Assembly (NCBI GenBank): GCA_963770895.1
Contig: CAVYRF010000002.1
Location: 4,128,001-4,192,000, forward strand
From: an uncultured Acidobacteriota bacterium
GTDB lineage: Bacteria; Acidobacteriota; Thermoanaerobaculia; Multivoradales; UBA5704
Reading direction: 5' to 3'
Length of the DNA stretch: 64,000 nucleotides
A program made the translations under genes and the position numbers. Each line of letters starts with the position of its first letter. Positions within the stretch are counted from its first letter, which is position 1. The notes under the pieces are model-generated. The model worked only from the letters and a program-made list of their open reading frames with translations, was not told the DNA's origin and ran no database searches. Shown here in pieces: positions 1 to 21,248 of this stretch.

Positions 1-1
1 C

Positions 2-304
2 GACCGGTACCGCCCGTCGCCGCTGCCGGGCGGCGGCGCGGGAGTCGCCCTGCTGCTCGCCGGCCAGGGCCCGTCGCGCCGCCCGGCGGCGGCCTGGGCC
101 GCCCTGGCCGGCGCCGGCGCCGAGGTTGCCGTGCTGCCCGGCGATCACTATTCGATCGTGCGCCCACCCGCCGTCGCGACGCTTGCCGCCGTGGTCCGCC
201 GCCTGCTCGCCGGCGCCGGTTGTCGATGTCGCGGCGCCGCCGGCCTCGGCCCCGCGCACCCCGCCGGCGCCATCCCCATCGTCGAGATCGTCGAGCGGCC
301 GTAG
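2..304 (+). CDS. C-terminal end of a thioesterase domain (probably NRPS/PKS terminal TE), partial at window start
   Basis: Hand translation of frame 2: DRYRPSPLPG..ALLLA..W..EVAVLPGDHYSIVRPPAVATLAAVV..; PGDHYS is the typical TE catalytic-His motif; TAG at 302-304. Not in the ORF track. Confidence 0.75.
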   Translation, partial: DRYRPSPLPGGGAGVALLLAGQGPSRRPAAAWAALAGAGAEVAVLPGDHYSIVRPPAVATLAAVVRRLLAGAGCRCRGAAGLGPAHPAGAIPIVEIVERP

Positions 305-715
305 CCGCAGCCCCCGCGGCCGGCGGCGCCCAGTGCGCCCGGCGCGCTGCGACCCGCCGCGGCGCCGCCGCCGTACCAGCGCCGTAACGTGATCGAAAAC
401 GTTATTGTCCTGAAGGATCATGCCCGGTGGTCGATCGCCGGCACCGGCGGCGGAGAGTTGCCCGCAGCGCGACGACGGGGTGAACATTCGGTGACGGCGG
501 CACCAGGTTGCGAAATCTGACTCTTGCGGCCCCTGGGGGGGGCAAGGTGTCACGATTTTGGGACCAGGCGGCACACGTGGAAGAGAGGAGCGCACCAGGC
601 AATCCATCCCGCCCGCGGCCAGGGAAGGAACCGGACAGCGCCCGCAGGCAGCTGAACGTATGGGTAAGGTCGGAAACACATCTCCCGCCACTTGCTGGCA
701 TGGTGAGGTCTTCGA

Positions 716-1159
716 ATGCATCAGGTAACGCAATTGAACGGCACGAGCGCCGCCATCGGTTCGCCGATGCCATACTTCGTGAACCCTGAGCTGAGCGCCA
801 AGGCGCTCGAAATCAACTGGCGGTCGTTTGAGTACTACCCGCCGCTCGATCGCATCAAGCGCTACACCGAAGAGCATTACCAGGAAGAGATCCCGCTGCC
901 GTGCGCCGCCGAGGTGGCGGGCATGGAAGCCACCTACTTCTCGGCTTTCTTCCGCAAGAAAGTCGGCATTCGCTATACCGACTGGCTGTGCTGCCTGCGC
1001 ATCTCGCACGCGATCCGGCTGATCTCCAGCCGCGACCAACCGATCGCGGACGTGGCGCTGGCGGTCGGTTTCAGCGATTTGCGGACGTTCCAGCGCGCGT
1101 TCAAGCGCGTCACCAACATGACGGCGCGCGAGCTGAAGGAGCGCGTCCGTCCGGCGTAG
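716..1159 (+). CDS. AraC-family transcriptional regulator (short, essentially DNA-binding domain only)
   Basis: AAEVAGMEATYFSAFFRKKVG and IADVALAVGFSDLRTFQRAFKRVT double-HTH signature; start could be 767. Confidence 0.9.
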   Translation: MHQVTQLNGTSAAIGSPMPYFVNPELSAKALEINWRSFEYYPPLDRIKRYTEEHYQEEIPLPCAAEVAGMEATYFSAFFRKKVGIRYTDWLCCLRISHAIRLISSRDQPIADVALAVGFSDLRTFQRAFKRVTNMTARELKERVRPA

Positions 1160-1256
1160 CAGCCGGTTGAAAACCCCTGGACCGGCGGCAGCTCCGCCGC
1201 GTGAGCGGCGGGCGCTGCCGCGCCGGTGTCCCCAATCAGTGAATGGAGCGGCGGCG

Positions 1257-2780
1257 ATGTTAATTCGCAAGGTCAACCCCGACGAGTTCGTCGATGCGTA
1301 CGACGTCAAGGAACAGATGTTCTATCCCTGGAGCGACGTCGTCTCGACGCCTTTCGGCGCCGCATGGCTGGTGGTCGAACCGGGACAGCGCACCAAGCCG
1401 CACAACCACCACGAGCAGGAGACCTTCTTCATCGTCAGCGGCCGCGGCAAGATGACCTACGACGGCGAGAGCCTGGACGTGGAGCCGGGGCACGTGGCGT
1501 ACTTCCCCGCCTTCGGCGATCACATTTTGGAAAATACCTCGGCGGACGAAGATCTGCACTTCCTCACCATTTGGTGGGAAGACGAATCGGTCGTCTCGGC
1601 GCTCAAGGACGGCAGCGCCGCCGGCAAGACGTCCGGCGCCGTCAAGGACCTGGTGGCGGTGTCGCTCGCGGCAGCGCCGGCGGCGCAGTCCGCGGCGGCG
1701 GTGATGGCTCGTTACCTGCTGCTGCGCGGCGCCCGCGCACGGCTGGCCCTGACGCCCGCGCCGGCGGCCGCGGGTGCGGACGCCACCGCGGCGGCCCCGG
1801 CCTGCGACCTGCTGCGGCGTCTGGCCGCCGCCGGCGCCATCACGGTCGACGCGCAGGGCGTGACGTTCGCGCCGGCACAGTTCGCCGCGGCGGTGCGCAG
1901 CCACTACGACCAGGCGACGATGAGCCCGCGGCTGCGCGCCCTGGTGGATGCCCAGCTGTTGCGCGGCGCCGCCGTGGCGACCCTGGCCCGGCCGGCCGCC
2001 GCCGGCGCGCCGGTGCCGCTGCCGGGCTTCACCGATCACCGCCTGGAACCCTGGTTCGAGAGCGCGGCGCGGGTGCTGGCGACGCCGCGCGGCGAAGAGC
2101 GGCCGGTGGTTTTCGTGGGCGCCGAAGGTTGGAGCGAAGCCGGCCTGCTGCCGGCGCTGGCCGCCGCGGCGGGCAAGACCTGGGCGCCGGTGGCGCTGGT
2201 CGACCTGACCGAAGCCGGGGCCGCCCTGCCCGAGTGGGCCGCCACCGGCGAGCCGCCTGCCGCCTGGACCGCCTGGCTCGGCAACCTGGGCGCCAACCTG
2301 GTGCGCGACGATGCCGGCAAGGTGCCGCCGACCCAGGCATGGACGACCGAGCAGCAGCGCTTCATGGCGCGCCTGCTGCGCTACGTCGACGAAGCCGGCG
2401 CCGCCTACGATCCCGCCACCTTCTCGCCGCGCGAAGCGGCGCGGGTGCTGTCCGACCTGGTGCGCACGGCCGGCGAGTACGCCGACCGCGAGCGCCCCTG
2501 GAACGGCATCGCCAACCGGCGCGAAGAGCGCAACACCGCCGTGGCGCTCGAAGCCCTGGCGGCCAAGGTGCTGGCCTTCCTGGCCCAGCCGCTGCTGCCG
2601 GCGTGGAGCGACCGGCTGTGGCAGGCCCTGGGATACAGCCGGCCGCTCGGCGCCGGCTCCTGGGAGACGACCCCGACCTTCGTGCCCACCGGCAGCGCGG
2701 CGGCGGGCCTGGCAGAGCTGGCGGGACCGGCGCCGGTGCCGGCGGCGGCGCCTCTCGCGGTGGCGGGGGCGCCTTCCTGA
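1257..2780 (+). CDS. Cupin domain fused to a degenerate MetRS-like domain (hydrazine synthetase cupin component)
   Basis: ATG 1257 after GGAG; cupin PW..PFG..VEPG..PHNHHEQETFF..H..N..WW; C-terminal part resembles the 5681-7372 protein but lacks HIGH, KMSKS-like and Zn-knuckle motifs. Confidence 0.85.
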   Translation: MLIRKVNPDEFVDAYDVKEQMFYPWSDVVSTPFGAAWLVVEPGQRTKPHNHHEQETFFIVSGRGKMTYDGESLDVEPGHVAYFPAFGDHILENTSADEDLHFLTIWWEDESVVSALKDGSAAGKTSGAVKDLVAVSLAAAPAAQSAAAVMARYLLLRGARARLALTPAPAAAGADATAAAPACDLLRRLAAAGAITVDAQGVTFAPAQFAAAVRSHYDQATMSPRLRALVDAQLLRGAAVATLARPAAAGAPVPLPGFTDHRLEPWFESAARVLATPRGEERPVVFVGAEGWSEAGLLPALAAAAGKTWAPVALVDLTEAGAALPEWAATGEPPAAWTAWLGNLGANLVRDDAGKVPPTQAWTTEQQRFMARLLRYVDEAGAAYDPATFSPREAARVLSDLVRTAGEYADRERPWNGIANRREERNTAVALEALAAKVLAFLAQPLLPAWSDRLWQALGYSRPLGAGSWETTPTFVPTGSAAAGLAELAGPAPVPAAAPLAVAGAPS

Positions 2781-2837
2781 CGCCTGCGGCGCCGTCGCGC
2801 CCGGCGCGGCGGCAGCGGGTCGCGGAGCCCATGCGAA

Positions 2838-4199
2838 ATGCTGCTTGAGCCGAAGGACGATGCGGAGTCGGGGTGGATCGGGATGCTGCCGCCCGCGCCC
2901 GCGCTGTGCCCGCTCAGCGGCGACGAGCGCTGCGACTCCGCGATCATCGGCGCCGGGTTGACCGGCCTGGCCATCGCCCGCCGCCTGGTCGAGCTGCGGC
3001 CGGGCGAGCGGGTGGTGATCGTGGACGCCCAACGCGTCGGCTATGGCGCCTCGGGGCGCAACGCCGGGTTCGTCGTCGAGCTGACCGACTTCGCGGCGCG
3101 CATGGCGCCGGCCGACCGCCAGCGCTACGTGCGGGTGGCCCGGTTCGGCATCCGCTGCCTGCGCGAGCAGATCGCCGAGCACGGCATCGACTGCGGCTGG
3201 GACGACCAGGGGGTGCTGCGCGCGGCGGCGGGGGAGGAGGGGCACCGCGCCCTGGCCTCCTGGCCTGCATGGCTGGACACCGCCGGTTCTCCCTACACCC
3301 GCCTGGACGCGGCGGCCACCGCGGCGGTGACCGGCACCCCTTTCTATACCGGCGCCATCCGTTTTGGCGGCACCGCCAACGTGCAGCCGGCGGCGCTGGT
3401 GCGCGGCCTTGCCGCCGCGCTCCCCGGCGAGGTGACGGTGTTTGAAAACTCGCCGGTGCGGGCGATCCGACGCCAGGCCCTCGGCAACGGTGGGGATCGG
3501 AGCCATGGCGGCAACGGCAAGAGCGGCGCCGGCGGCGGCGCCGGTTTCCACCTCGAGGTGGGCGGCGGCACGCTCACCGCTCGGCGCCTGTTCGTGGCGG
3601 TCAACGGCTATACCCCCGGCCTGGGCCTGCTGCGCCAGCGGGTGTCGCCGCTGTGGAGCTTTGCCAGCCTGACCCGCGTGCTGAGCGCCGGCGAGCAGGC
3701 GGCGGTCGGCGGCGATCCGCAGTGGGGAGTGCTGGCGACCGATCCCTCGGGCTCGACCGTGCGGCGCACGGCGGACCAGCGCATCATGATGCGCAACACC
3801 TTTCACTTCACCTCCGAGCTGACGGTGCCGCCGGAAGTGCGCCAGGCGGCGGCGGTGCGCCATCGCGAGGCGGTCGCGGCGCGCTGGCCGGCGCTCCAGG
3901 ACGTGCCGTTCGAGTACACCTGGGGCGGGCTGATGGGAGTTTCCAGCAACGGCCAGGCGTACTTCGGCGAGCTGGAACAGAACCTTTTCACCGTGGCGAT
4001 CTACAACACCGCAGGGCTCGCGATGAGCGCCGCGGCGGGCCGCCTGCTGGCGGACCTGGCCCTGGGCTTGCGGTCGCCCCTGCTGCAAGACATCGGGCAG
4101 CTGCCGCTGCCCTCCTGGTTGCCGCCCGAGCCGCTGCGCTCCGCGCGCGGGCGGCGCAAAGTCGCGAAGCTGAACAGCCAGGCCGGAGCCTACCTGTAG
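2838..4199 (+). CDS. FAD-dependent oxidoreductase, DAO/PuuB-like family (candidate Spb39/Tri27-type C-N cleaving oxidase)
   Basis: IIGAGLTG, GASGRNAGF, VQPAALVRGLA, EYTWGG motifs; role inferred from context. Confidence 0.85.
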   Translation: MLLEPKDDAESGWIGMLPPAPALCPLSGDERCDSAIIGAGLTGLAIARRLVELRPGERVVIVDAQRVGYGASGRNAGFVVELTDFAARMAPADRQRYVRVARFGIRCLREQIAEHGIDCGWDDQGVLRAAAGEEGHRALASWPAWLDTAGSPYTRLDAAATAAVTGTPFYTGAIRFGGTANVQPAALVRGLAAALPGEVTVFENSPVRAIRRQALGNGGDRSHGGNGKSGAGGGAGFHLEVGGGTLTARRLFVAVNGYTPGLGLLRQRVSPLWSFASLTRVLSAGEQAAVGGDPQWGVLATDPSGSTVRRTADQRIMMRNTFHFTSELTVPPEVRQAAAVRHREAVAARWPALQDVPFEYTWGGLMGVSSNGQAYFGELEQNLFTVAIYNTAGLAMSAAAGRLLADLALGLRSPLLQDIGQLPLPSWLPPEPLRSARGRRKVAKLNSQAGAYL

Positions 4200-4261
4200 G
4201 CCGCACCGCGGCGGCTCCGCACCCCACGAACGGTAGACCTCAGAAGGAAAGGCGACGAGCG

Positions 4262-5668
4262 ATGAAGCAGCGGAATCGGATCGAGGATGCGGAAGCCCGT
4301 CACACAGGCGCGCCTCTCGACGTGATCGGCATTGGGTTCGGTCCTGCCAATCTCGCCCTGGCCGCGTGCTTGAAAGAGCAGCCGGAGATGATCGAAGGCC
4401 GGCTGGTGCAGAGCCTCTTTTTGGAGCGCAAGCCGCACTACGAGTGGCACCCCGACATGCTGATCCAGGGGGCGGAGATCCAGGTGCCTTTTCTCAAGGA
4501 CCTGGTGAGCCTGCGCAATCCGATCAGCCGTTTTTCTTTCCTCAACTACCTGCACGTGCACGGCAGGCTGCTCGATTTTGTCAACCTGCGCACGTTCTTC
4601 CCCACCCGCGTCGAATTCAACCAGTACTACACCTGGGTGGCGGGGCAGCTGTCCGACCGCGTGCGCTACGACCGCGAAGTGCTGTCGGTGCAGCCCGTGC
4701 CGGCCGAGGAGGACGGCGTGGTCGAGCTGCTGCAGGTCAAGGCGCGGCACCAGGCGACCGGCCGCGTCGAGGAATACCTGACGCGCAACCTGGTGGTGGC
4801 GACCGGCGGCTCGCCCTACATCCCGCCCGGCATCGACATCAGCACCACCGACAAGGTGTTCCATTCGCAGACCTTCCTTGCCGGGCTGCGGCAGCACTTC
4901 CCCGACCCCGACGCGCCCTACCGGTTCGTCGTCGTGGGTTCGGGCCAGAGCGCCGCGGAGATCTTCCAATACCTGTTCTCCAACTACCCCAACTCCGACG
5001 TGACGGCGACGATGCGGCGCTTCGCCTACAAGCCGGCCGACGAAAGCGAGTTCGTCAACGAGATCTATTCGCCGGCGATGACCGACGTGTTCTTCGGCCT
5101 GCCCGAAGCGGAGCGGCGCAGCCTGCACGCGGCGCACGCCGACACCAACTATTCGGCGGTCGACCTGGAGCTGATCCGTTCCATCTTCCGCGCCATGTAC
5201 CAGATGAAGGTGAACGGCCAGAGCCGCGTGCGGGTGCGCGCGATGTGCGAGCTCAAGCAGCTCGAAAAGAGCGGCGACAGCCTGGTCGCCACGGTGTGGA
5301 ACAAGGTGGCGGCGCGCATGGAAACCCTGGAAGCCGACGGCGTCGTGCTGGCGACCGGCTTCACCCGGCCGCGCCGCCATCCGCTGCTGCGCGAGCTGAA
5401 CAACCACCTGCTGACGACGCTTGACGGCGCCTACGACGTCCACCGCGACTACCGGGTGCGCAGCGTGCCGGGCTTCACGCCGGGCATCTATCTGCAAGGT
5501 TTCTGCGAGACCACCCACGGCATCAGCGATTCGGTGCTGTCCATCCTGCCGGTCCGCAGTCAGGAGATCGTGCAGTCGATCGTCGGCGGCACTTGCAGCC
5601 GGGCCGAGGACCTGGAGACGGCGGTGGCGAGCGCCGCCTATCTGCCGAGCTCGGGCGAACCGCTGTAA
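4262..5668 (+). CDS. Lysine/ornithine N-hydroxylase (SidA/IucD/PvdA family)
   Basis: IGIGFGPANLALA, WHPDML, FLKDLVSLRNP, VVGSGQSAAE, KPADESEFVNE, TNYS, LATGF, HGISDSVLS. Confidence 0.95.
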   Translation: MKQRNRIEDAEARHTGAPLDVIGIGFGPANLALAACLKEQPEMIEGRLVQSLFLERKPHYEWHPDMLIQGAEIQVPFLKDLVSLRNPISRFSFLNYLHVHGRLLDFVNLRTFFPTRVEFNQYYTWVAGQLSDRVRYDREVLSVQPVPAEEDGVVELLQVKARHQATGRVEEYLTRNLVVATGGSPYIPPGIDISTTDKVFHSQTFLAGLRQHFPDPDAPYRFVVVGSGQSAAEIFQYLFSNYPNSDVTATMRRFAYKPADESEFVNEIYSPAMTDVFFGLPEAERRSLHAAHADTNYSAVDLELIRSIFRAMYQMKVNGQSRVRVRAMCELKQLEKSGDSLVATVWNKVAARMETLEADGVVLATGFTRPRRHPLLRELNNHLLTTLDGAYDVHRDYRVRSVPGFTPGIYLQGFCETTHGISDSVLSILPVRSQEIVQSIVGGTCSRAEDLETAVASAAYLPSSGEPL

Positions 5669-5680
5669 GGCGGGGAGGAC

Positions 5681-7372
5681 GTGATGAAGAGAGTGCTGAT
5701 CACCGCCACGCCGCCGACTCCCAACGGCGAGCTGCACGTCGGACACCTTTCGGGTCCGTACCTGGCGGGCGACGTGTTCAAGCGGTTCTGCCGGCTCAAT
5801 GGGCGCGAGGTGCGCTACATCACCGGCGGCGACGACAACCAGAGCTACGTCGCCACCAAGGGCGAGCAGCTGAAAATGACGCCGCAGCAGACGGCCGACA
5901 AGTTCAACGGCGCCATCGCCGACATCCTGCGGCGGGCGCAGATCGAAGTGGACGTGTACGTGCAGCCGTTGCACTCGGCGCACCATCCGCAGTTCATCGC
6001 CGAGTTCGTAAAGCGGCTGTACGCCGCGGGCCACCTGGTGGGCAAGGACGTCGCGGCCGCCTGGTGCGGCCAGTGCGAGCGTTACCTTTTCGAGTCGTAC
6101 ATCGGCGGCATCTGCCCGCACTGCGGCGCGCACTGCGACGGCAACGTCTGCGAAGCGTGCGCCGAGCCCAACCAGTGCACCGACATGATCGACGCGACCT
6201 GCAAGAAGTGCGGCAGCCCGGCGCTGGAACGCTCCTACCGGCGGCTGTTCTTCCCGCTGGCGCCGTTCGCGTCGCGCCTCGCCGACTACTTCTCGCGGGT
6301 GAGCATGGGATCGCACCTGGCGGCCTGCTGCGACCGCATGCTCGCCAAGGGGCTGCCCGACATCCCGGTCAGCAACCTGGCGGACTGGGGCATTCCGGTG
6401 CCGGTGCCCGGCTTCGAGGGACAGCGGCTGTACGCCTGGTTCGAGATGGGGCCGGGGTATCTGAGCGCCATCAACGAAATGTTCGCCCAATCGGGGCGCG
6501 GCGACGCCTGGGCGGACTGGTGGAAGTCGGACGACGCCGAGGTGGTGCAGTTCTTCGGCTACGACAACGCCTACTTCCACACCACCCTCTTCACCTCGGA
6601 AATGATGGCGTACGACCCGGAGATCCGCCTGCCGGCGGCCTTCGTCACCAACGAGTTCTACCGGCTGGACGGGCTCAAGTTCTCGACCAGCCGCAACCAC
6701 GCCATCTGGGGCAGCGCGGCGCTCGACCACCTGCCCTCGGACGTGTTGCGCTACTTCCTCTGCCTGGACCGCCCCGAAACGGCGCAGACCAACTTCCGCT
6801 GGCAGGACTTCCGGCGCGCCGTGCACCGCGATCTGATCGAGGGCTGGCAGCCCTGGCTGCTGCAGGTGGCGCGCTCGGTGCGCGAGGAGCACCAGGGGAG
6901 CGTGCCGCAGATGGCGCCGCTGTCCGCCAACGAGCAGCGCTTCGTCGCCGAGATGGCGGGGCTGGTAGTGGCGGCGACTGCCGGCTATCAGAAGGAGAGC
7001 TTTTCGCCGCGGCGCGTGGTGGCGGCGCTCAACCAGCTGGTGGAGTCGGCGCGCATGTTCGGCGAGGCGGCCGGCTACTGGCGCAGCGGCGCCCACGAGC
7101 GGCGGCGCAATGCCGCGGCGCTGTCGGTCAGCGCCGTCGCGACGCTCGCGGCGCTGGCAGCGCCGATCATGCCGTCGCTTTCGGCGCGGCTCTGGTCCGA
7201 GCTGGGCCTGGGCCAGGCGCCCGCCGCGGGCGACTGGCCGACGCAGCCGGTGATGGTGCCGGCCGGCCGGCAGCTGCGCGGCATGGACAGCGCCTATTTC
7301 ACCGGTATCGACAGCGGGTGCGACGCGCTGGAGGCGGCGCGAGCGCCGGCGGGGGCCGCGGCCGTCGCCTGA
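5681..7372 (+). CDS. Methionyl-tRNA-synthetase-like adenylating enzyme of secondary metabolism (hydrazine synthetase activation component)
   Basis: PPTPNGELHVGH (HIGH), four CxxC pairs, WGIPVP, KFSTSR (KMSKS-like); sits beside an N-hydroxylase and a cupin, so unlikely to be housekeeping metG. Confidence 0.9.
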   Translation: MMKRVLITATPPTPNGELHVGHLSGPYLAGDVFKRFCRLNGREVRYITGGDDNQSYVATKGEQLKMTPQQTADKFNGAIADILRRAQIEVDVYVQPLHSAHHPQFIAEFVKRLYAAGHLVGKDVAAAWCGQCERYLFESYIGGICPHCGAHCDGNVCEACAEPNQCTDMIDATCKKCGSPALERSYRRLFFPLAPFASRLADYFSRVSMGSHLAACCDRMLAKGLPDIPVSNLADWGIPVPVPGFEGQRLYAWFEMGPGYLSAINEMFAQSGRGDAWADWWKSDDAEVVQFFGYDNAYFHTTLFTSEMMAYDPEIRLPAAFVTNEFYRLDGLKFSTSRNHAIWGSAALDHLPSDVLRYFLCLDRPETAQTNFRWQDFRRAVHRDLIEGWQPWLLQVARSVREEHQGSVPQMAPLSANEQRFVAEMAGLVVAATAGYQKESFSPRRVVAALNQLVESARMFGEAAGYWRSGAHERRRNAAALSVSAVATLAALAAPIMPSLSARLWSELGLGQAPAAGDWPTQPVMVPAGRQLRGMDSAYFTGIDSGCDALEAARAPAGAAAVA

Positions 7373-7435
7373 GGCGGCAGGCCGGCGACCGCGGATCGAG
7401 GAACGACCCAAACGAATGACGAAAGGGATGAAGCC

Positions 7436-8863
7436 ATGAGCGAGACCTTCGACGTAATTATCATTGGCGGCGGCCCCGCCGGCACCACGGTCGCGACCAA
7501 GCTGGTGCAGCGCGGCCGCAAGGTGCTGCTTTTGGAGCGCGAAAAGTTTCCGCGCTTCCATATCGGTGAATCGATCACCGCCTTCGGCTTCACGGTGTTC
7601 AAGGAGCTGGGGGTGTTCGACGAGCTCAACGCGATGAACGAGGTGAAGAAGAAGGGACTGGAATTCGTGTTGCACGAGAAAAAGTACAAGGTCTTCTTCT
7701 TCCAGGAGAACCGCGACGAGCCGGCGCGCTGGGCGTTCCAGATGGCGCGCGACAAGTTGGACAACGTGCTGCTGCGCAACGCCCAGAAGGTCGGCGTCGA
7801 CGTGCGCGAAGAGCACCTGGTCAAGCGCGTCCTGTTCCAGGGCGACAAGGCCATCGGCGTGGAATTCAAGGATTACTCGATGGGGCCGTCCGAGGAGCTC
7901 AAGTACGCCTACGCCAAGTGGATCGTCGACGCGTCGGGGCAGGGGGCGCTGCTCAACCACCAGCTGAAGGACAACTGGTACAACGACCCGCTGCTCGACA
8001 ACAAGATGGCCATCTTCTGCCACTGGAAGGGCGACATCACGGTCAAGAACACCGACGACGAGCTCAACTTCAAGCTGTGCGTGCACAAGAACCGCCGCGA
8101 CTGGTGCTGGTACATCCCGATCGCCAAGGACACCCTGTCGCTGGGCGTGGTGCTGAGCCCCGAGACGGTGAAGCGCGAAACGCAGACCAAGTCGCTGGAA
8201 CAGATCTTCTACGAGTACGCCAAGGACATCCCGTTCATCAGCGACATCCTCAAGAACACCACCCTGGAAGCGGTGGAGAAGTTCCGCATCGTGCGCGACT
8301 ATTCCTACCGCTCCAGCCGCTACTACGGCAACCATTGGGCGATCGTCGGCGACAGCGCCGGCTTCATCGACCCGATCTTCTCGACCGGCCTGCAGGTGGC
8401 GTTCAACAGCGCCTACGCGCTGATCGACCCGCTCAACCAGCTGCTCGACCACGAGGGCCCCGGCGAGGTCGACCTGTCGGTGCTCAAGGGCTACGACTAC
8501 GCGGTCAACCGCTACTACCGCATCAATTCGATGCTGGTCTACCTGTTCTACCTGTGCCGGCTGGACTACGCCAACTACAACTTCTGGTACATGTGGAAGC
8601 ACATCGAGTGGGCCGGCTGGAGCGACCGGCTGAAGTGCGCGCGACTCTACATCCGCTACATCATGGGGTCGGCGCAGAACAAGAGCAAGTGGTTCAACCA
8701 GGTCCTGTTCGGCAATCCGGGCGCCGAAAACCCGCTGGGCGACGTGGCGATGGCGCTGTCGGCCAACTACGATAAGGTATTCAGCAAGCGCGCCGCGCGG
8801 CCGCCGCGCGAAGAGAAGGAAAAGCGGGAGCAGTGGGTCGGAGCCCAGGCCGGCGCGGCCTAG
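7436..8863 (+). CDS. Flavin-dependent halogenase (PltA-like family)
   Basis: IIGGGPAG, PRFHIGES, candidate catalytic Lys in VKKKG, WCWYIP (WxWxIP), GDSAGFIDPIFSTG. Confidence 0.85.
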   Translation: MSETFDVIIIGGGPAGTTVATKLVQRGRKVLLLEREKFPRFHIGESITAFGFTVFKELGVFDELNAMNEVKKKGLEFVLHEKKYKVFFFQENRDEPARWAFQMARDKLDNVLLRNAQKVGVDVREEHLVKRVLFQGDKAIGVEFKDYSMGPSEELKYAYAKWIVDASGQGALLNHQLKDNWYNDPLLDNKMAIFCHWKGDITVKNTDDELNFKLCVHKNRRDWCWYIPIAKDTLSLGVVLSPETVKRETQTKSLEQIFYEYAKDIPFISDILKNTTLEAVEKFRIVRDYSYRSSRYYGNHWAIVGDSAGFIDPIFSTGLQVAFNSAYALIDPLNQLLDHEGPGEVDLSVLKGYDYAVNRYYRINSMLVYLFYLCRLDYANYNFWYMWKHIEWAGWSDRLKCARLYIRYIMGSAQNKSKWFNQVLFGNPGAENPLGDVAMALSANYDKVFSKRAARPPREEKEKREQWVGAQAGAA

Positions 8864-8950
8864 CCACGGCGCCAACCGCGCCGTACCCGGCCGCTGTCGG
8901 CCGCGACGTGTGACGCCGTATGCCACAGGCCCTTTGAGCAAGGAGACGCG

Positions 8951-11392
8951 ATGATTTCAGATATCCGGCAGGCGCTGCGCCAGATGGCCGCCCACCCCGG
9001 CTTCACTCTGGTGACCGTCTTGACCCTTGGCCTTGGCATCGGCGCCAACACGGCGATCTTCAGCATGGCGCGGGGGGTGCTGATGCGCCCCCTGCCCTAT
9101 GCCCACGGCGCCGCCCTGGTGCACATGGTGCCGCGCATCTCGGGCGCGGTCGGCGACCAGGTGTACTTCCCGGTGTTGGAGGTGCTCGACTACCGCCGCG
9201 AAAATCAGACCCTGGCGGCGGTGCTCGAATACCACTCGATGACGTTCAACCTGCTGGGCGAGGGCGAGCCCGACCGGGTGCAGACCGGCGTCGTCTCGGC
9301 CAACTTTTTCCGCGGCTTCGGCATCGCGCCGATCCTCGGCCGTGACTTTCGCCCGGACGACGACGCGCCGGGCGCCAACCCGGTGCTGCTGCTGTCCTAC
9401 GACTACTGGAAGGACCGCTTCGGCGGCGATCCCAAGGTCGTCGGCAAGCGGCTGCGCATGAACAGCCGTGAGATCGAAGTCATCGGCGTGCTGCCGCGGC
9501 TGCCCGCCTATCCCGGCAACGACCGGGTGTTCATGCCGACCTCTTCGTGCCCCTTCCGGTCGTCGGAAGGCACCAAGTCCAACCGCAACATCCGCATGGT
9601 CAGCATGTGGGCTCAGCTCAAGCCCGGCGTGACGCTCGATCAGGCGCAGGCCGACATCTCGACGCTGACGTCGCGCGAGCTGCGGTCGTTCCCCACCGCC
9701 TCGACCGCCGGCCTGCGCGTCGACCTGGTGCCGGTCAGCCAGGAGCTGACCGGGCACTTCCGGCCGACGCTCCTCATCCTGCTGGGGACGGTGGCCCTGG
9801 TGCTGCTGCTCGCCTGCGCCAACGCCGCCAACCTCACCTTTGCGCGGCTGCTCAGCCGCGAGCGTGAAGTGGTGGTGCGTGCGGCGCTGGGCGCCAGCAA
9901 GGCGCGCCTGGTGCGCCAGCTGCTGACCGAAAGCGTCCTGACGTCGCTCATGGGCGGCGTCCTGGGGTGCCTGCTGGCGGTCTTCGGGCTGGACCTGCTG
10001 GTCTCCTTCGCGCAGCGCTTCACGCCGCGCGCGGTGGAAATCCGCATCGACGGCGTGGTGCTGCTGTTCTCGCTGGGGCTGTCGCTGCTCGCCGGGTTCG
10101 CCTCGGGATGGCTGCCGGCGGTGCAGGCGCTGCGCCACAACCTGGCCGCCTCGCTCAAGGAGGGGGCGGGACGCTCGACGGCGGCAGCCGGCAAGCGGCG
10201 TTTCCGCGACCTGATGGTGGCGGCGCAGGTGGGGGTGTCGCTGGTGCTGCTGATCGGCGCCGGCCTGATGGTGCGCAGCCTGGTGCGGCTGATCGAAGTC
10301 GATCCCGGCTTCCGGCCGGAGCGGGTGCTGACCGCGACGCTGGAGCTGCCGTTCTCCAAGTACCCGCCGGGCGGGCCGCAGATCGCCAACTTCTTCACCC
10401 GGCTCTTGCAGGACATGGCGACCGATCCCAACGTCATCTCGGCGGCGGTGTCGAGCGACGTGCCGATGGGCGATTCCGACCTGATGACGCCGGACTACAA
10501 GGTCGAGGGGCAGCCGACGCCGGTCGGCCAGCCGGCGCCGCGCGCCGACGTGCACATCGCGAGCGAGGACTACTTCACGACGCTCGGCATCCCGATGGGC
10601 GAGGGGCGCTCGTTCACCTCGCAGGACAGCCTGCACGCGCCCGCGGTCATCGTCGTCAACCGCGAGATGGCCAAGCAGTGGTGGCCCAACCGCAGCCCGA
10701 TCGGCCAGCGCATCGCCATCAACTGGGCGCGCCATCCTGAGATGCGCACCATCGTCGGGGTGGTGTCCAACGTCCGCCACGAAGGGCTGACGGCCAAGGA
10801 GCACCCGACGATCTACCTGCCCTTCCAGCAGCTGCCGGGCGACGGTTCGCAGATCTTCGTGCGCACCCGCACCGACCCGTCCACCTTCCTGGCCAACCTG
10901 CGCGGGGCGGTGGCGACGATCGATCCCGAGCAGCCGGTGGCCAACATCCAGACCCTCGAACAGGTGCGCAGCAGCGCGCTGGCGCCCACCCGGCTGATCG
11001 CCATGCTGCTGTCGCTCTTCGCCGCCCTGGCGCTGATCATCACCGGCATCGGCATCGGCGCCGCCGTCTCCTTCGCGGTCGCCGAGCGCGTCTCCGAGAT
11101 GGCCATCCGCATGGCCCTCGGCGCCGACGGCGGCAGCGTCCTGTCGCTGCTCTTCAAGCGCGCCATGGGCCCGGTCTTCATCGGCTTGGCCCTGGGCCTG
11201 GCCGTCGCCATCACCCTGACCCGCGTCCTGGCCAGCAGCCTGGCCGGCATCGGCCTCTTCGGCATCGGCGCCACCGACCCCCTGGCCGTCGCCGCCGCCC
11301 TGGTTGTCCTCCTGGCCATCGGCGTCGTCACCTGCTTCCTCCCCTCCCGCCGAGCCGCCAAGGTCGACCCAGCCTCCGTCCTCCGCCAGTAA
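8951..11392 (+). CDS. ADOP-family duplicated ABC permease (MacB/FtsX-like)
   Basis: DIRQALRQM..PGFTLVTVLTLGLGIGANTAIFS start, LLLACANAANL, RAALGA..RLVRQLLTES, IRMALGA, ..RRAAKVDPASVLR end. Confidence 0.95.
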   Translation: MISDIRQALRQMAAHPGFTLVTVLTLGLGIGANTAIFSMARGVLMRPLPYAHGAALVHMVPRISGAVGDQVYFPVLEVLDYRRENQTLAAVLEYHSMTFNLLGEGEPDRVQTGVVSANFFRGFGIAPILGRDFRPDDDAPGANPVLLLSYDYWKDRFGGDPKVVGKRLRMNSREIEVIGVLPRLPAYPGNDRVFMPTSSCPFRSSEGTKSNRNIRMVSMWAQLKPGVTLDQAQADISTLTSRELRSFPTASTAGLRVDLVPVSQELTGHFRPTLLILLGTVALVLLLACANAANLTFARLLSREREVVVRAALGASKARLVRQLLTESVLTSLMGGVLGCLLAVFGLDLLVSFAQRFTPRAVEIRIDGVVLLFSLGLSLLAGFASGWLPAVQALRHNLAASLKEGAGRSTAAAGKRRFRDLMVAAQVGVSLVLLIGAGLMVRSLVRLIEVDPGFRPERVLTATLELPFSKYPPGGPQIANFFTRLLQDMATDPNVISAAVSSDVPMGDSDLMTPDYKVEGQPTPVGQPAPRADVHIASEDYFTTLGIPMGEGRSFTSQDSLHAPAVIVVNREMAKQWWPNRSPIGQRIAINWARHPEMRTIVGVVSNVRHEGLTAKEHPTIYLPFQQLPGDGSQIFVRTRTDPSTFLANLRGAVATIDPEQPVANIQTLEQVRSSALAPTRLIAMLLSLFAALALIITGIGIGAAVSFAVAERVSEMAIRMALGADGGSVLSLLFKRAMGPVFIGLALGLAVAITLTRVLASSLAGIGLFGIGATDPLAVAAALVVLLAIGVVTCFLPSRRAAKVDPASVLRQ

Positions 11393-11408
11393 CCCCCCAG
11401 GAAAGTCC

Positions 11409-11438
11409 AGGGGCCGCGGCACGTCCGCGGCCCCTTTT
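11409..11438 (+). terminator. Intrinsic terminator after the permease
   Basis: AGGGGCCGCGG-CACGT-CCGCGGCCCCT stem followed by a short T run. Confidence 0.7.
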
Positions 11439-11487
11439 CCACCCCCCCACCAGAAGCCCCGCGCCGCCGGCGCAACACCTTCCCTCA

Positions 11488-11540
11488 TCGCCCCCCGGCC
11501 CGAGCGCGGTCGCGCCGTCAGGCGCGCCGCGGTCGGGGCA
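11488..11540. repeat. ~53-bp palindromic (REP-like) repeat, copy 1
   Basis: tcgccccccggcccgagcgcggtcgcgccgtcaggcgcgccgcggtcggggca; near-identical copy at 11931-11983. Confidence 0.85.
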
Positions 11541-11930
11541 ACCAAGGAGGCGAGGGGCACCTTTCCTGCCAGCGAGTCTCCACAGCTGATGGCGCAGCCT
11601 GGCCCTGCGGCCGCCCCACCCGAGGCGGCAGCTCCGGGGCGGCTGCCGGGAGGGCTCCCCTTGTCGTCGCGCTGCGGGCTCGTGGGGCGCCAGCGACTTG
11701 GCGGTGAGCCGTATTGCCAGCGGAGCCCACATTGCCTCGCCCCAGAGCGCCGCCAAGTGGACCCTCCCGTCAGCCGCCCCTCCCCGGACTGCCAGCGACG
11801 ACTCCGGCGGCGGATGGGTCGCCTGCGAATCGAAGGCACCGCCGGCCGCAAGTGCGTGAGTACAGCGCAGCTCACGCTCCAGAGCCAGGCCGAAGCCAAG
11901 GTGCCCTCGTCGCGGCAAAACCTTCGCTCT

Positions 11931-11983
11931 TCGCCCCCCGGCCCGAGCGCGGTCGCGCCGTCAGGCGCGCTGCGGTCGGGGCA
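11931..11983. repeat. ~53-bp palindromic (REP-like) repeat, copy 2
   Basis: One mismatch versus 11488-11540. Confidence 0.85.
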
Positions 11984-12056
11984 TTCCCGCCTCGCGACCC
12001 ACAGCAGGTTCCGGGGAAAAAGGCGAACCAGATGGGCAGATGACACATTGCACGCA

Positions 12057-12182
12057 CGTCCTGTCGCTGCTCTTCAAGCGCGCCATGGGCCCCGGTCCTC
12101 ATCGGCCTGGCCCTGGGCCTGGCCGTCGCTATCGCCCTCCCGCGTCTTGGCCAGCAGCGTGGCCGGGGTGCGCCGAGCCGCC
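12057..12182 (+). pseudogene. Degenerate duplicate of the 3' end of the ADOP permease gene
   Basis: cgtcctgtcgctgctcttcaagcgcgccatgggc..ggccctgggcctggccgtcgc..cccgcgtc.tggccagcagc matches about 11137-11247 with indels; then cgccgagccgcc matches about 11348. Confidence 0.85.
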
Positions 12183-12249
12183 GGGCCGTCCACGACGGCG
12201 GTTTCCTGGCAATCGGCGCGCAGGGTGTCGCATGTTACAGTAGTGTCTT

Positions 12250-12738
12250 GTGAGCAACCGTGAACTCGATTTGCGCCGTTTGTCGGATGGCATTCCCCAG
12301 ATGCCACGCAGGCTGACTGCGCGCGAACGCCTTGCGGATCATGTGTTCTTCTACCTGCAGATGGCGTCGTGGTTTACCTTCCTGGTTGGTGGCATTGTCG
12401 GCTATGCGGTCAAGGGTCTGATCGGCTGCGTTGTCTTGCTTGGCGCCGGCACGCTGTTCGGCTTCTGGATGCGCAGAAGCCTCGGCAGGCGAGGCCGAGA
12501 TCCATTTCATGGGTTCTTCCGGCGTCTCAAGGAGCGCGCCAACGGCTCCCGCCGCGGACTGCTCGAATGGGCTATTGAAACCTTGCGTGGCAGTGGTTTT
12601 ACGCTCTCCAAGTGCCAAGCCATCACTGCCGCATACGAGCGGGCCATGGCGCAGGGTCGTTCGGCATCGCCAGCGGAGAGACAAGTTATCCTCCAGCACC
12701 TTGACGCAGAGGTTAAGCGTATCTCCTATTCGAGTTGA
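12250..12738 (+). CDS. Hypothetical membrane protein
   Basis: 162-aa ORF with two hydrophobic segments in a lower-GC region. Confidence 0.55.
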   Translation: MSNRELDLRRLSDGIPQMPRRLTARERLADHVFFYLQMASWFTFLVGGIVGYAVKGLIGCVVLLGAGTLFGFWMRRSLGRRGRDPFHGFFRRLKERANGSRRGLLEWAIETLRGSGFTLSKCQAITAAYERAMAQGRSASPAERQVILQHLDAEVKRISYSS

Positions 12739-12754
12739 CGCGCAGGTGCCGCAT

Positions 12755-13735
12755 ATGTCCTGGTCGCAGCGCCGGAAAGTGGTGTGGCGCGTGCTCGTAA
12801 CTGGCAACGCACTGCTGATCTTTGCCGCTATTGCCTCCACGGCCCTGGGGATCACAGCGGCATGGAATGCAACCAAGACTGAATTCTTGCACGCTCTGGT
12901 GAGCCTACTTTTCACTTTCGGCTGCTGGTCGTGCAGCCTGGTAGGGTGTTGGTATGGAGGTCTTGGGTTGCTCCAATGGCGCGAGTCGGGGCGGATTTTG
13001 CATGGAGTTTCGTCATCGGAGAGACGGGCGATGTCGGCTCTGTGCCGCATCTCGGACGCAAATCAGGTGGTTTATGGCTCTCAGCCAATGATGCTGATCC
13101 CTGGTGCAATTGCCCTGGGTGCTGCTTTGCTATTGAAGGAGCCGCGTTGGCTTGGCATCGTTGTCATGATGGCTGGTCTTCGATGGTGGCTTTGGGTACG
13201 CACCACGACGCCGCCGTTTGTCCTCTTCCTTTCCACCTCACACTCTCGAAGCATAGAGATGCATCGGCAGACCAAGCGCTTGGTGAGCCCGCTGCGGGTC
13301 GTGACGCTGCTGGACCTGGGCGACAGCCCGTCCCGCGTCGTGGACGAAATCCGCCTGGATTGCTTAAGAAGCGGCAATGACGCCGATTGGTGGAACGTAA
13401 TAACGATTCTAATCGAGGTGACACCACTGATCGTCATCAACGCCGACACGGAAAGTCCCGGCGTGCTGAGGGAAGCCCGGTACCTGATTTCGGAGGGCCT
13501 TACGTTCAAGGCATTCTTTCTGACCAAGGGCGACGCTTGTCTCCTCCGACGCGAGCCAGAACCAGCCGCCAGCGCATCAACCTGTCGTGTTGGTTCTGCT
13601 GCGTCACTGCAAGAGCTCATCATGGCGATTCTCAACAGCGAGAAGCTTCCGGAAAGAGGGCAGACCCTTGGGCCGCCTATCCGGCACGGAGCTTTTCCCG
13701 GATCACCCGGCAGGGACTGCGGACCCGGCGTGTGA
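12755..13735 (+). CDS. Hypothetical multi-TM protein with a C-terminal alpha/beta (possibly TIR/NDT-like) domain
   Basis: About four hydrophobic helices, then PFVLFLST..DWWNVITILIEVTPLIVIN..SPGVLRE; lower GC. Confidence 0.55.
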   Translation: MSWSQRRKVVWRVLVTGNALLIFAAIASTALGITAAWNATKTEFLHALVSLLFTFGCWSCSLVGCWYGGLGLLQWRESGRILHGVSSSERRAMSALCRISDANQVVYGSQPMMLIPGAIALGAALLLKEPRWLGIVVMMAGLRWWLWVRTTTPPFVLFLSTSHSRSIEMHRQTKRLVSPLRVVTLLDLGDSPSRVVDEIRLDCLRSGNDADWWNVITILIEVTPLIVINADTESPGVLREARYLISEGLTFKAFFLTKGDACLLRREPEPAASASTCRVGSAASLQELIMAILNSEKLPERGQTLGPPIRHGAFPGSPGRDCGPGV

Positions 13736-13827
13736 CTGCAGATCAACTCTGGCGGTTTGCTCAGGCCGGGCGGGTCTGGTCGGTGGTGCGGCCCTACGTG
13801 GAAGCGATCGTCGCCGATGGCTCTTGA
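13707..13827 (+). pseudogene. C-terminal remnant of a type IV TA antitoxin (AbiEi-like)
   Basis: RQGLRTRRVTADQLWRFAQAGRVWSVVRPYVEAI resembles AbiEi C-termini; overlaps the AbiEii-like start. Confidence 0.65.
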
Positions 13828-14176
13828 ATCTCGCAACGTGGGTGCTTCCGTCCGTTCGCGTCTCCTCGACCGGGCTCGCGCCCATGGCTCCGAGTTCGAT
13901 CGATCTTTGCTGACGGCAGCGCTCCGCCGAACGTTCGAGCGGCGCCGTACCGCCTGGCCGGCGGCAACGCCGACCGGCCTTGGTGAAGCATTCGCGGCCG
14001 ATAAGAACGTGCAGTGGCGTGCGTTCCTCGGGCGCGAGCGTCTGGGCGCAGCGCCTGATGCGTTTTGACGCGTCATCGCAGACCTGCGCGTTTTCCTGGC
14101 GCCGCTGGTCGCCGAATACAAAGATGGCGAGCAGTGGATGCCTGGGGGTCCGTGGGCTCGCGAGGAGGGTGCCTGA
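13817..14176 (+). pseudogene. Internally deleted AbiEii-like nucleotidyltransferase toxin
   Basis: N-terminal NVGASVRSRLLDRAR joins directly to C-terminal AALRRTFERRRT..P.GL..FAAD..QWRAFL; in-frame TGA at 14066-14068, then RVIADLRVFLAP..WMPGGPW. Confidence 0.75.
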
Positions 14177-14220
14177 GGCGGCGCCGGTGTTCCGGCGCCG
14201 GTTTGGTGGTGGGGGCTGGG

Positions 14221-19603: not shown

Positions 19604-19837
19604 GCGCGGGGGCCTGGCGTGTGCCGTGGCTGGAGGGTGCCGTGCCGGTGCCGCGGGGTGTCCCTGGGAAGGGTCGCCGGGCGTACGCCGGTGGAGACGT
19701 CGCCGGCGCCGGTGGCGGGCCGCGCGCTGGGCTTTGCCATGCGCCGGAGTATGGCATGCCTTTAGCACTGGTAGGATTGCGACGCTGACGCCGCGCTTGC
19801 GCCCTCCTCCGGCGGCGTCCCCTTGAAAGGTGAACCG

Positions 19838-21115
19838 ATGAACGCGAAGATGCTGCTGGTCCTGGCCGGTGTAGGCCTGCTTGGCGCCGGCTGTGCCGTA
19901 TATGTGCCGTTGGGGCCCCCGCCGGGCCCGCCACCCCCGTCGCCGTATACGCAGGGCGGCCCGCCGCCCTATCAGCCACCGCCGCCGGGAGCGCCCGGCG
20001 ACCAGGGGTATAACCCCGCCGGCGCCGACCAGCCGCCACCGCCGGGAGCCGACCAGCCGCCGCCGGGAGCCGATCAGCCGCCGCCGGGCGACGACCAGCC
20101 GCCGGCGGGCGCCGCGCCGCCTCCGGGCGACCAGGACCAGGCGGACGTCGGGCAGTTCTACAACCAGCTGTCGCCCTACGGCGAGTGGGAGCAGGTGCCT
20201 TCCTACGGCTGGGTGTGGGTGCCGCGCGGCATGGCTCCGGGCTGGCGACCCTACAGCGTCGGCCACTGGGTCTACAGCGACGCCGGCTGGGCCTGGGTGT
20301 CGGATGAGCCCTTCGGCTGGGCCTGCTATCACTATGGGCGCTGGTTCGACGACCCCGGCTTCGGCTGGGCGTGGGTGCCGGGTCCGGTCTGGGCGCCGGC
20401 CTGGGTCGCCTGGCGCAGCGGCGGCGGCTACATCGGCTGGGCGCCGCTGCCTCCCGCCGTCGGCTGGCGCGCCGGATTTGGGCTGCAGCTGGGCGGCGTC
20501 GATCTGAACGTGGCGATCGGGCCGACGCACTTCTGCTTCGTCGGCGAGCACGACTTTCTGTCGGCGCACGTGCACGACGTGCTGCTGCCGCCTTCGCGCG
20601 GCGTGACCCTGATGCGCAACACGGTCAACATCACCAACTACACGGTGGTCAACAACCGCGTGGTCAATCGCGGCGTCGCGGTCGATCACATCGAAAAGGC
20701 GGTCGGCCATCCGATCCAGGCGGTCCGCCTGGCGTCGTCGTCGTCGCCGGAGCGGGCCGGGGTGCGCGGCGGCACCGTCGCCTTCTACCGGCCGCCGGTG
20801 CCCGCCGGCCGCGCCGCAGCGGTGGCGCGTCCGCCGGCGCGCGTGGCGCCCAACTACAGCGCCGAAGAGCTGGACCGCCGGCACCAGGCGGAACGGCAGG
20901 ACCTCGAGCGCTACCAGCAGTCGCAACGCGAAAACCTGCAGGCGTTGCACCAGCGCGAGATGGCCAGCCAGTCGTCGGAGGCGGGGCGCAGGCAGCTGGC
21001 GCAGCAGCACGCCCAGGAGGTGCAGGCGCAACAGCAGCTGCACCAGCGCCAGGCGCAGGTGATGCAATCCCGCCAGCAGCGGGAGCGCGCGGCAGTGCCC
21101 CACCCGCACCACTGA
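19838..21115 (+). CDS. DUF6600-like Trp/Gly-rich lipoprotein
   Basis: Lipobox LGAGC; LSPYGEW..YGWVWVP..GWRPY..GHW..GWAWVSDEPFGWACYHYGRW; Gln-rich tail. Confidence 0.85.
   Translation: MNAKMLLVLAGVGLLGAGCAVYVPLGPPPGPPPPSPYTQGGPPPYQPPPPGAPGDQGYNPAGADQPPPPGADQPPPGADQPPPGDDQPPAGAAPPPGDQDQADVGQFYNQLSPYGEWEQVPSYGWVWVPRGMAPGWRPYSVGHWVYSDAGWAWVSDEPFGWACYHYGRWFDDPGFGWAWVPGPVWAPAWVAWRSGGGYIGWAPLPPAVGWRAGFGLQLGGVDLNVAIGPTHFCFVGEHDFLSAHVHDVLLPPSRGVTLMRNTVNITNYTVVNNRVVNRGVAVDHIEKAVGHPIQAVRLASSSSPERAGVRGGTVAFYRPPVPAGRAAAVARPPARVAPNYSAEELDRRHQAERQDLERYQQSQRENLQALHQREMASQSSEAGRRQLAQQHAQEVQAQQQLHQRQAQVMQSRQQRERAAVPHPHH
20024..20110 (+). repeat. In-frame tandem repeat (G-A/D-DQPPP, four copies)
   Basis: gccgaccagccgcc.ccggg units of 21-24 bp. 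Confidence 0.8.
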
Positions 21116-21248
21116 TCCGTCGTCGCTTGTTTGGCGGTTTCTCCAGCACCGGCCGGCTTGATGAGCCGAACGGTGCCGCGAGCGCCGGCGATGGCGTGCG
21201 TGCCAGCCGCGGCTTCGACGTCGGAGCCGGCGGTGCCTGCCCGGCGGA

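Follow-up and report, generated by a model that had tools for sequence, protein, structure and literature searches.

Among the enzymes that form N-N bonds, hydrazine synthetases make up the largest family known, and they are under development as biocatalysts. The systems for s56-p1 (Spb38/39/40), triacsin (Tri26/27/28) and azaserine (AzsL/M/N), all hosted by Streptomyces, share four activities: an N-hydroxylase, an O-aminoacyl-hydroxylamine synthetase (aaHS) that resembles methionyl-tRNA synthetase (MetRS), a zinc cupin and a flavin adenine dinucleotide (FAD) oxidase. In these systems, the cupin and the active MetRS-like domain are joined in one protein, to which AzsN adds a carrier domain. 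Here, we describe a set of four co-oriented genes at positions 1257-7372 of a 64,000-nucleotide stretch of acidobacterial DNA (the window; G000:C2:4128001-4192000, within an 8.16-Mb, three-contig genome). The genes encode a cupin protein, a DAO-family FAD oxidase, a flavin N-hydroxylase and a standalone MetRS-like enzyme (aaHS), and lie next to a gene for a nonribosomal peptide synthetase (NRPS).

Two further kinds of system are close to the locus. PyrN of the pyrazomycin pathway is a didomain protein that uses D-glutamate; a saccharopine-dehydrogenase-type enzyme acts on this glutamate route to set the product free (PMC8664883). Its C-terminal domain, hereafter PyrN-C, is the aaHS of the pathway and carries the motifs HLGH and KFSTG (9L8V; bioRxiv 10.1101/2025.08.22.671884). 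In the split systems, the cupin and the MetRS-like enzyme are separate polypeptides. These include the system of Rhodococcus jostii RHA1, where the cupin RHS1 (5UQP) is paired with a MetRS-like protein that stands alone (PMC8664883), and that of Burkholderia ubonensis, with AsnHS-cupin and AsnHS-aaHS (bioRxiv 10.1101/2025.08.22.671884). As these papers describe them, the split cupins are small and free, with a chain of 125 aa in 5UQP and ~100 residues in the preprint.

The original prediction held that the gene set fits the logic of Spb38/39/40 and Tri26-28. This view, which extends to AzsL/M/N, is supported by the N-hydroxylase, the PyrN-C-like aaHS, the zinc-cupin residues and the DAO-type oxidase. 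Set against the published descriptions of the Spb, Tri and Azs proteins, however, the architecture differs: the active MetRS-like domain stands as a protein of its own, and a second, dead copy is attached to the cupin. The split systems share the separate polypeptides, but the cupin in the window is attached to a pseudo-domain of ~380 aa. We therefore read the locus as a new architectural form of a known hydrazine synthetase system. In searches of open-access papers and preprints, taken without their supplements and including the review PMC11705231, neither the fusion of a cupin with an inactive MetRS-like domain nor an acidobacterial hydrazine synthetase was found described. The supplement to one preprint tabulates 830 and 884 mined homologues, among which the variant may stand unremarked (bioRxiv 10.1101/2025.08.22.671884).

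A cupin fused to a degenerate MetRS-like domain

The first gene of the cassette had been described as encoding a cupin protein. A cupin is indeed present, with a Cupin_2 match and all four metal and catalytic residues, but the 507-aa product is not a plain cupin. The cupin takes up ~1257-1620 (residues 1 to ~120) and is followed at ~1644-2780 by a pseudo-MetRS of ~380 residues. The cassette thus encodes two MetRS-derived proteins, not one.

The cupin half matches solved structures in a PDB sequence search (plu4264, 4mv2, E 1.2e-19; 4rd7, E 2.1e-13; RHS1, 5UQP, E 6.8e-7), and Foldseek superposes it on 4mv2 and 4rd7 with a template modelling (TM) score of 0.81. Residues H49, H51, E55 and H89, invariant in 32/32 members of the family described below, correspond to H50, H52, E56 and H90, the metal and catalytic residues of PyrN (PMC8664883). 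This indicates that the cupin half is intact.

The second half is weakly MetRS-like in sequence. It shows a match to the MetRS-type Anticodon_3 domain (residues 386-491, counted on the open reading frame (ORF) that starts at 1167) and to PyrN-C (9L8V, E 4.3e-6 on residues 329-461). An AlphaFold (AF2) model of the 507-aa protein, built on 32 homologues, reached a mean predicted local distance difference test (pLDDT) score of 81.9 and a predicted TM-score (pTM) of 0.71; in Foldseek, the model found MetRS and PyrN-C at TM 0.55-0.61. In an alignment with the active enzyme and a canonical didomain protein, the PxPNGxxHxGH segment is replaced and the KFSTx segment is deleted. In addition, the zinc-knuckle insert is gone from the window's copy, and GxDN is altered. 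Because these motif segments are lost, and because PyrN is inactive when the lysine of KFSTG is mutated (K458A; PMC8664883), the domain is predicted to be incapable of adenylation. The 507-aa protein has no competent MetRS-like domain behind its cupin, and from its sequence we read it as the cupin half of a split synthetase rather than a canonical didomain synthetase. A search of the window's genome found no hydrazine-synthetase-type cupin or aaHS besides the one of each in the cassette. If any N-N bond is made, these two proteins must therefore cooperate.

The combination of a cupin with a dead MetRS-like domain is a conserved family and not an accident. A word-index search returned 34 proteins, of which 32 were aligned; the fragment P0034 (395 aa) and the canonical didomain protein P0036 were left out. 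HxGH and KFSTx are absent throughout (0/32 each), and three or more CxxC motifs are kept in 5/32. The dead domain is nonetheless conserved in its own way, with 31 invariant columns. The members come mostly from Thermoanaerobaculia, a class for which metagenomes are almost the sole source of knowledge. When the dead domain was used by itself as query, an exhaustive HMMER search retrieved 16 cluster representatives at E ≤ 1e-30. Twelve more distant proteins share the same build (P0157, P0162, P0164, P0166, P0167, P0172, P0174, P0178, P0180, P0184, P0186 and P0246); every one of them has the cupin motif HxHxxxE and lacks both HxGH and KFSTx. In a tree of MetRS-like domains (47 selected rows plus the MetG of the genome, with cupins trimmed off), the dead domains group together in a single clade (SH-aLRT 97), which sits on a long stem within the hydrazine synthetase radiation. 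The tree does not single out any active clade as the parent.

Among species-representative genomes, seven loci contain the family (L019-L025). Wherever sequence was available downstream of the gene in the related loci, a DAO gene follows it directly (6/6). The order cupin-pseudoMetRS, DAO, hydroxylase, aaHS recurs in L019, together with a halogenase, and in L023. An AraC gene also stands beside the cupin-pseudoMetRS gene in L024. All five other genomes with the family that were searched encode a standalone aaHS, 65-69% identical to that of the window. In a well-assembled relative (L042, G002:C5:1806001-1825000), the aaHS orthologue is found on another contig, away from the cupin-pseudoMetRS and DAO genes, between a gene for a major facilitator superfamily (MFS) transporter and two ORFs of >2,300 aa; one hydrazine pathway may be split between two loci there.

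Ordinary hydrazine synthetases, by comparison, are widespread. A pattern scan of species-representative genomes with the aaHS alignment gave at least 591 related stretches. The best 80 loci, classified by tblastn, comprise 58 with a didomain protein, 12 with a separate cupin and 10 without a cupin within the flank. Since many of these 80 are acidobacterial, a hydrazine synthetase in the phylum is not remarkable by itself, and homologues are not rare outside Actinobacteria, from which the original prediction took these pathways to be mainly characterised. The dead-domain arrangement, within the same 80 loci, is limited to the clade of the window's enzyme. Other cupin arrangements were seen as well: P0169 (819 aa) has two cupin motifs ahead of an aaHS, and in both L088 and L102 a tandem pair of cupin matches lies upstream of the aaHS gene.

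The standalone MetRS-like enzyme and its predicted substrates

The closest solved relative of the 562-aa aaHS in a PDB sequence search is PyrN-C (9L8V and 9VQ4), at E 4.5e-87 over residues 5-509. True MetRS structures trail behind, with Pyrococcus MetRS (1rqg) at E 8.3e-73 and E. coli MetRS at E ~4e-38. The enzyme shares with MetG the class I Rossmann fold, HxGH, the zinc knuckles and the C-terminal helix bundle. It differs in that KFSTS replaces KMSKS and in that it scores under the curated MetG cut-offs (TIGR00398, 289.5 vs 336.35; NF001100, 324.1 vs 587). A true MetG, which exceeds the cut-off with 469.5 bits, is encoded elsewhere in the genome (G000:C2:5757720-5759150) and is just 24% identical to the aaHS. 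Identity with housekeeping MetG, which the original prediction itself had named as telling against it, is not borne out by the sequence. Because of the sub-cut-off scores, the proximity to PyrN-C and the separate MetG, we assign the protein by its sequence as a component of a hydrazine synthetase and not as MetG.

Several features of PyrN (9L8V, 9VQ4, 9VQJ and 9VR2) are found again in the window, including HxGH, KFST(G/S), two zinc knuckles, equivalents of D420 and N421, and the cupin ligands. In the aaHS, HVGH lies at residues 19-22, four CxxC motifs are present, and T141, N143, Q182, D420 and N421 of PyrN, which bind hydroxylysine and the backbone of the amino acid, are matched by T13, N15, Q54, D295 and N296. 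HxGH is conserved in 40/40 and KFSTx in 39/40 of the aligned standalone relatives.

The amino acid used by these enzymes has been related to an eight-residue pocket code. The published codes are SFVQALNR for PyrN, TPDQWMNH for the glycine-using AzsN and SADQWYGH for the threonine-using ThzN (bioRxiv 10.1101/2025.08.22.671884; PMC12376268). Mapping of PyrN S138, F139, V179, Q182, A384, L387, N421 and R425 through the PyrN-C alignment yielded T10, P11, D51, Q54, W253, M256, N296 and H300 in the aaHS, and the same residues were obtained with a second alignment of relatives. The resulting code, TPDQWMNH, is identical to that of AzsN (PMC12376268) and is common to 23 of the 40 standalone relatives. 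The mapping of positions gains support from the letters, which reproduce the AzsN motif exactly. The two arginines with which PyrN holds the glutamate side chain, R390 and R425, are replaced by G259 and H300. The aaHS is accordingly predicted to be glycine-specific.

The neighbouring oxidase fits such a route. AzsN is the enzyme of the azaserine pathway that forms hydrazinoacetic acid (HAA), and on the glycine route HAA is freed by an FAD oxidase, Spb39 or AzsM (PMC12376268; PMC10445470). A DAO gene is therefore what a glycine route would call for, rather than the saccharopine-dehydrogenase-type enzyme of the glutamate route. The oxidase contains a GAGLTG motif and belongs to the DAO-family FAD-dependent oxidoreductases encoded with hydrazine synthetase genes; relatives of at least 41% identity occur in 20 of the best 80 hydrazine synthetase loci. 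Among the 120 homologues listed of 503, there was no characterised oxidase, and those with a stated source come from metagenome-assembled genomes (MAGs) of Acidobacteriota. By analogy, we propose that it is a C-N oxidase of the Spb39/AzsM type that would free the hydrazino acid.

The hydroxylase is a class B flavin N-hydroxylase with the motifs GFGPAN and GSGQSA at its FAD and NADPH sites. Among solved structures, its best relative is MbtG, a lysine N6-monooxygenase (E 9.5e-101), followed closely by the ornithine enzyme PvdA (4e-95) and by SidA (5.9e-90), and it is probably an L-lysine N6-hydroxylase. The genome encodes another N-hydroxylase at G000:C2:674600-675916, which stands alone beside a MoeA gene and shares 66% identity with that of the cassette; 10 kb on each side of it contain no siderophore, cupin or MetRS-like gene.

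Proposed pathway and alternative explanations

We propose that the locus encodes a glycine-type hydrazine pathway that supplies HAA to an NRPS line, with a split synthetase in which the dead-domain cupin protein would serve as scaffold. We give this reading a probability of about 0.72. Gene identities, motifs, fold, conservation, co-occurrence and the three-part fusion described below are observed, while the substrates, the order of the steps, the scaffold role and the connection to the NRPS are proposals. In this pathway, the N-hydroxylase would convert lysine to N6-hydroxylysine. The aaHS would then adenylate glycine and transfer it to the N-OH group, giving a labile O-glycyl-N6-hydroxylysine. 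The zinc cupin of the 507-aa protein would rearrange this ester, forming the N-N bond of N6-(carboxymethylamino)lysine. Subsequently, the DAO-type oxidase would oxidise the C6-N bond of the lysine, and hydrolysis would free HAA. HAA or a derivative of it could finally enter the product of the adjacent six-module NRPS, which would also be N-methylated and probably halogenated; export by the permease encoded downstream may follow.

For the dead domain, we infer a role as scaffold or docking arm that pairs with the active paralogue. This is based on the co-occurrence of the two proteins, on a natural fusion and on the dimer of PyrN-C. In the metagenomic protein P0160 (1,155 aa), cupin, dead domain and full aaHS form a single chain, and PyrN-C crystallises as a dimer (bioRxiv 10.1101/2025.08.22.671884). 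The dead domain would mimic the PyrN-C homodimer together with the active paralogue and so place the cupin near the site at which the short-lived ester is released. A complex prediction with the aaHS (562 aa) and residues 125-495 of the cupin protein scored 0.02 against a mark of 0.32; it was run without controls and carries no weight either way. The cupin is invisible in the cryo-EM map of PyrN, which gives no view of how the MetRS-like site hands the ester over to it (bioRxiv 10.1101/2025.08.22.671884). A cupin that is mounted permanently on a dead copy of its partner amounts to a natural experiment on this hand-over and may offer structural studies a more rigid complex.

Several observations weigh against this reading. 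The glutamate pair with which PyrN contacts hydroxylysine is half kept in the aaHS (E284 corresponds to V156, E286 to E158). The predicted use of glycine draws on an eight-residue motif whose positions were inferred through the PyrN alignment, and the suggested kinship of the oxidase with Spb39, AzsM and Tri27 is drawn from its family and gene context. The E-values of 9.5e-101 for MbtG and 4e-95 for PvdA do not separate lysine from ornithine as the likely substrate of the hydroxylase. In the tree, the base is unresolved and the dead-domain clade does not stand beside the clade of its partner, and long-branch and composition warnings apply. In 3/5 related genomes, the contig that encodes the aaHS is not the one with the cupin-pseudoMetRS and DAO pair. 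In P0160, the motif lysine is a cysteine (CFSTS for KFSTS). Lastly, known HAA-handling genes encode an N-acyltransferase, an AMP-ligase, a free carrier protein and a KAS III (PMC10445470). Genes of these kinds were not seen beside the cassette, nor were HAA-loading genes of the Tri29-31 or AzsP-S type; its neighbours encode the NRPS, the halogenase and the ADOP permease.

The separate contigs imply that tight linkage of the aaHS is not required, and they fit equally well with a dead domain that serves the oxidase. If so, the pathway would be the same, but the dead domain would bind the DAO oxidase for hand-over of the adduct. It could also bind an NRPS carrier, or be a decaying remnant that is structural for the cupin. 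The cupin-pseudoMetRS and DAO genes never separate in the six loci mentioned above, and PyrN functions in vitro with its cupin and MetRS-like parts supplied in trans (PMC8664883). The fusion in P0160 and the PyrN-C dimer (bioRxiv 10.1101/2025.08.22.671884) speak for the aaHS as partner, however, and the 31 invariant columns and the confident fold speak against mere decay. We regard these other roles of the dead domain as tenable but clearly less probable than the scaffold. The substrates may also differ, with an amino acid other than glycine, and/or N5-hydroxyornithine or another hydroxylated diamine, leading to a hydrazino acid other than HAA. Synthetases that use Orn, Dab, putrescine and several amino acids have been reported (PMC12376268), codes that differ in one residue are common among the relatives, and ornithine enzymes resemble the hydroxylase almost as closely as MbtG does. 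Against this stand the full identity of the code with that of the glycine enzyme AzsN (PMC12376268) and a DAO-type oxidase that matches the HAA route (PMC10445470, PMC8664883), so that other substrates appear unlikely.

Much less weight falls on the two remaining explanations. The cassette could be a non-functional relic, given that catalysis is lost in one of the two MetRS-derived domains and that, upstream, the NRPS lines have a DDE transposase and a PIN gene between them. This is very improbable, as all frames are intact with strong codon bias, orthologues of 64-77% identity keep the gene order in other genomes, and the catalytic motifs of the aaHS, cupin, hydroxylase and halogenase are preserved. 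The least probable explanation, to which we give almost no credence, is that the hydroxylase supplies a hydroxamate siderophore made by the NRPS, with the MetRS-like gene as a spare or resistance copy of MetG. While a Lys/Orn hydroxylase beside an NRPS is typical of hydroxamate metallophores, the antiSMASH rule for this class takes a MetRS-like gene as a negative marker (PMC12971057). The scores and motifs that set the aaHS apart from MetG argue in the same direction, as do the true MetG elsewhere and the co-inheritance of cupin and DAO oxidase with the aaHS. In addition, the genes examined include no TonB receptor and no N-acyltransferase.

A bolder version of the scaffold reading is also conceivable, although we hold it only tentatively. 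Here, the 507-aa protein and the aaHS would form an obligate pseudo-heterodimer that arose from a duplicated synthetase domain and channels an ester with a half-life of minutes. The copy that lost catalysis would have turned into an arm that keeps the cupin at the mouth of the active paralogue. An NRPS module without an adenylation domain would take up HAA, and the product would be a halogenated, lipopeptide-like compound with an N-N bond. If true, this would be the first halogenated N-N lipopeptide-like metabolite from Acidobacteriota.

Gene layout, neighbouring genes and host

The window has a G+C content of 70%, and real frames were picked out by the GC content at third codon positions. The four cassette genes, whose shared orientation had already been predicted, all lie on the + strand in frames with a third-position GC of 0.86-0.98. 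From 1257 onwards, the intergenic gaps measure 12 to 87 bases. The ORF of the cupin protein opens at 1167, but an ATG at 1257 agrees with the start in all homologues. For the hydroxylase, the ATG at 4262 is the likely start, with GGAAAGG ahead of it as ribosome-binding site. The features at this end of the window are given in Table 1.

Table 1. Features of the window from its 5' end to the permease gene (columns: feature, positions, strand, supporting matches)
NRPS 3' end, thioesterase domain	1..304	+	part of 7,495-aa NRPS gene starting G000:C2:4105817
AraC-family regulator	716..1159	+	HTH_18 E 6.5e-19; HTH_AraC E 4e-11
Cupin with predicted catalytically dead MetRS-like domain, 507 aa	1257..2780	+	Cupin_2 E 1.4e-15; Anticodon_3 E 1.8e-5
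DAO-family FAD oxidase	2838..4199	+	PF01266 E 2.8e-45, 155.8 bits
Flavin Lys/Orn N-hydroxylase	4262..5668	+	PF13434 E 1e-108, 363.9 bits
Standalone MetRS-like enzyme (aaHS), 562 aa	5684..7372 (5681 alternative first base)	+	PF09334 E 4.4e-89
Flavin-dependent halogenase	7436..8863	+	Trp_halogenase E 2.4e-26
ADOP-family duplicated MacB/FtsX-type permease	8951..11392	+	TIGR03434 869.9 bits vs cut-off 622.3; MacB_PCD and FtsX, twice each

Within positions 1-12000, a promoter scan gave 0 sites and no terminator-like site was found on the + strand; the terminator scan, which performed at chance level, returned 6 sites, all on the minus strand. Rfam had 0 matches in the whole window at the gathering threshold. 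The sequencing runs listed for the locus are soil metagenomes and one coded organism, all of them DNA, with no RNA run.

The cassette lies, as predicted, downstream of a thioesterase. The 7,495-aa NRPS ends with its thioesterase (TE) domain at base 304, as identified by Pfam on the full upstream gene; the 5'-open frames 2-304 and 3-392 of the window gave no Pfam match by themselves. Pfam families in the whole protein are Condensation, AMP-binding, PP-binding, Thioesterase and FkbM methyltransferase. Mapping with jackhmmer, seeded with domains of the same protein, gave the order T-C-A-T-T-C-(no A)-T-C-A-T-C-A-T-C-A(FkbM methyltransferase)-T-C-A-T-TE, where C, A and T denote condensation, adenylation and carrier domains. 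Farther upstream, the genome encodes a 12,745-aa NRPS as well as an A-T-TE protein of 909 aa. The stretch that separates the two NRPS lines holds a gene with a PIN domain and an IS-type DDE transposase (G000:C2:4101635-4103293), and its opposite strand encodes an 828-aa protein in which a partial AMP-binding domain is fused to a luciferase-like monooxygenase. This cluster makes a member of the Thermoanaerobaculia a likely source of an N-N-containing, probably halogenated peptide.

Both giant NRPS genes (G000:C2:4105817-4128304 and G000:C2:4060873-4099110) contain one C-T module without an A domain, with merely 118-136 residues between C and T, and the nearer one also has a tandem T-T pair. Such modules would need loading in trans and are candidates for accepting an unusual unit such as HAA. 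At the end of the nearer gene, window positions 58-212 and 317-371 have 26 further matches across the genome, with a DNA identity of 71-96%, probably as shared NRPS/TE-coding or GC-rich repeat sequence.

The halogenase was likewise correctly placed downstream of the cassette. Flavin-dependent halogenases are marked by GxGxxG and WxWxIP, and the protein has GGGPAG at residue 11 and WCWYIP at 223, as well as FIDPIFSTG. With 158.8 bits against a cut-off of 900, it falls far short of the CmlS model. A halogenase gene of 76% identity follows the aaHS orthologue in L019/L047, L043 and L045. The genome encodes a second halogenase, 59% identical to the first, at G000:C2:3429064-3430506. The ADOP permease that follows in the window is a possible exporter.

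An acidobacterial host had been suggested as probable. This is supported by the score of the ADOP permease and by the MetG of the genome, whose closest relatives (up to 82% identity) all come from Acidobacteriota MAGs, mostly of Thermoanaerobaculia, in the 80 loci listed. The locus thus differs in its host, a soil acidobacterium, from the Streptomyces systems.

Downstream of the permease, ~2.8 kb (11400-14200) lack an ORF supported by codon bias. The four longest ORFs of this region have no Pfam match, Rfam gave no match either, and the G+C content falls to 0.56-0.62 at 12200-13600 against ~0.70 around it. At 17756-21460 on the minus strand, a 1,234-aa ORF with matches to dynamin-family GTPases overlaps an ORF on the + strand that matches DUF6600 (19823-21115). 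Both passed the codon-bias filter loosely, so that one or the other is probably a false call. A tRNA-Pro(GGG) with an unusual length of 98 nt is predicted by ARAGORN at 24578-24675.

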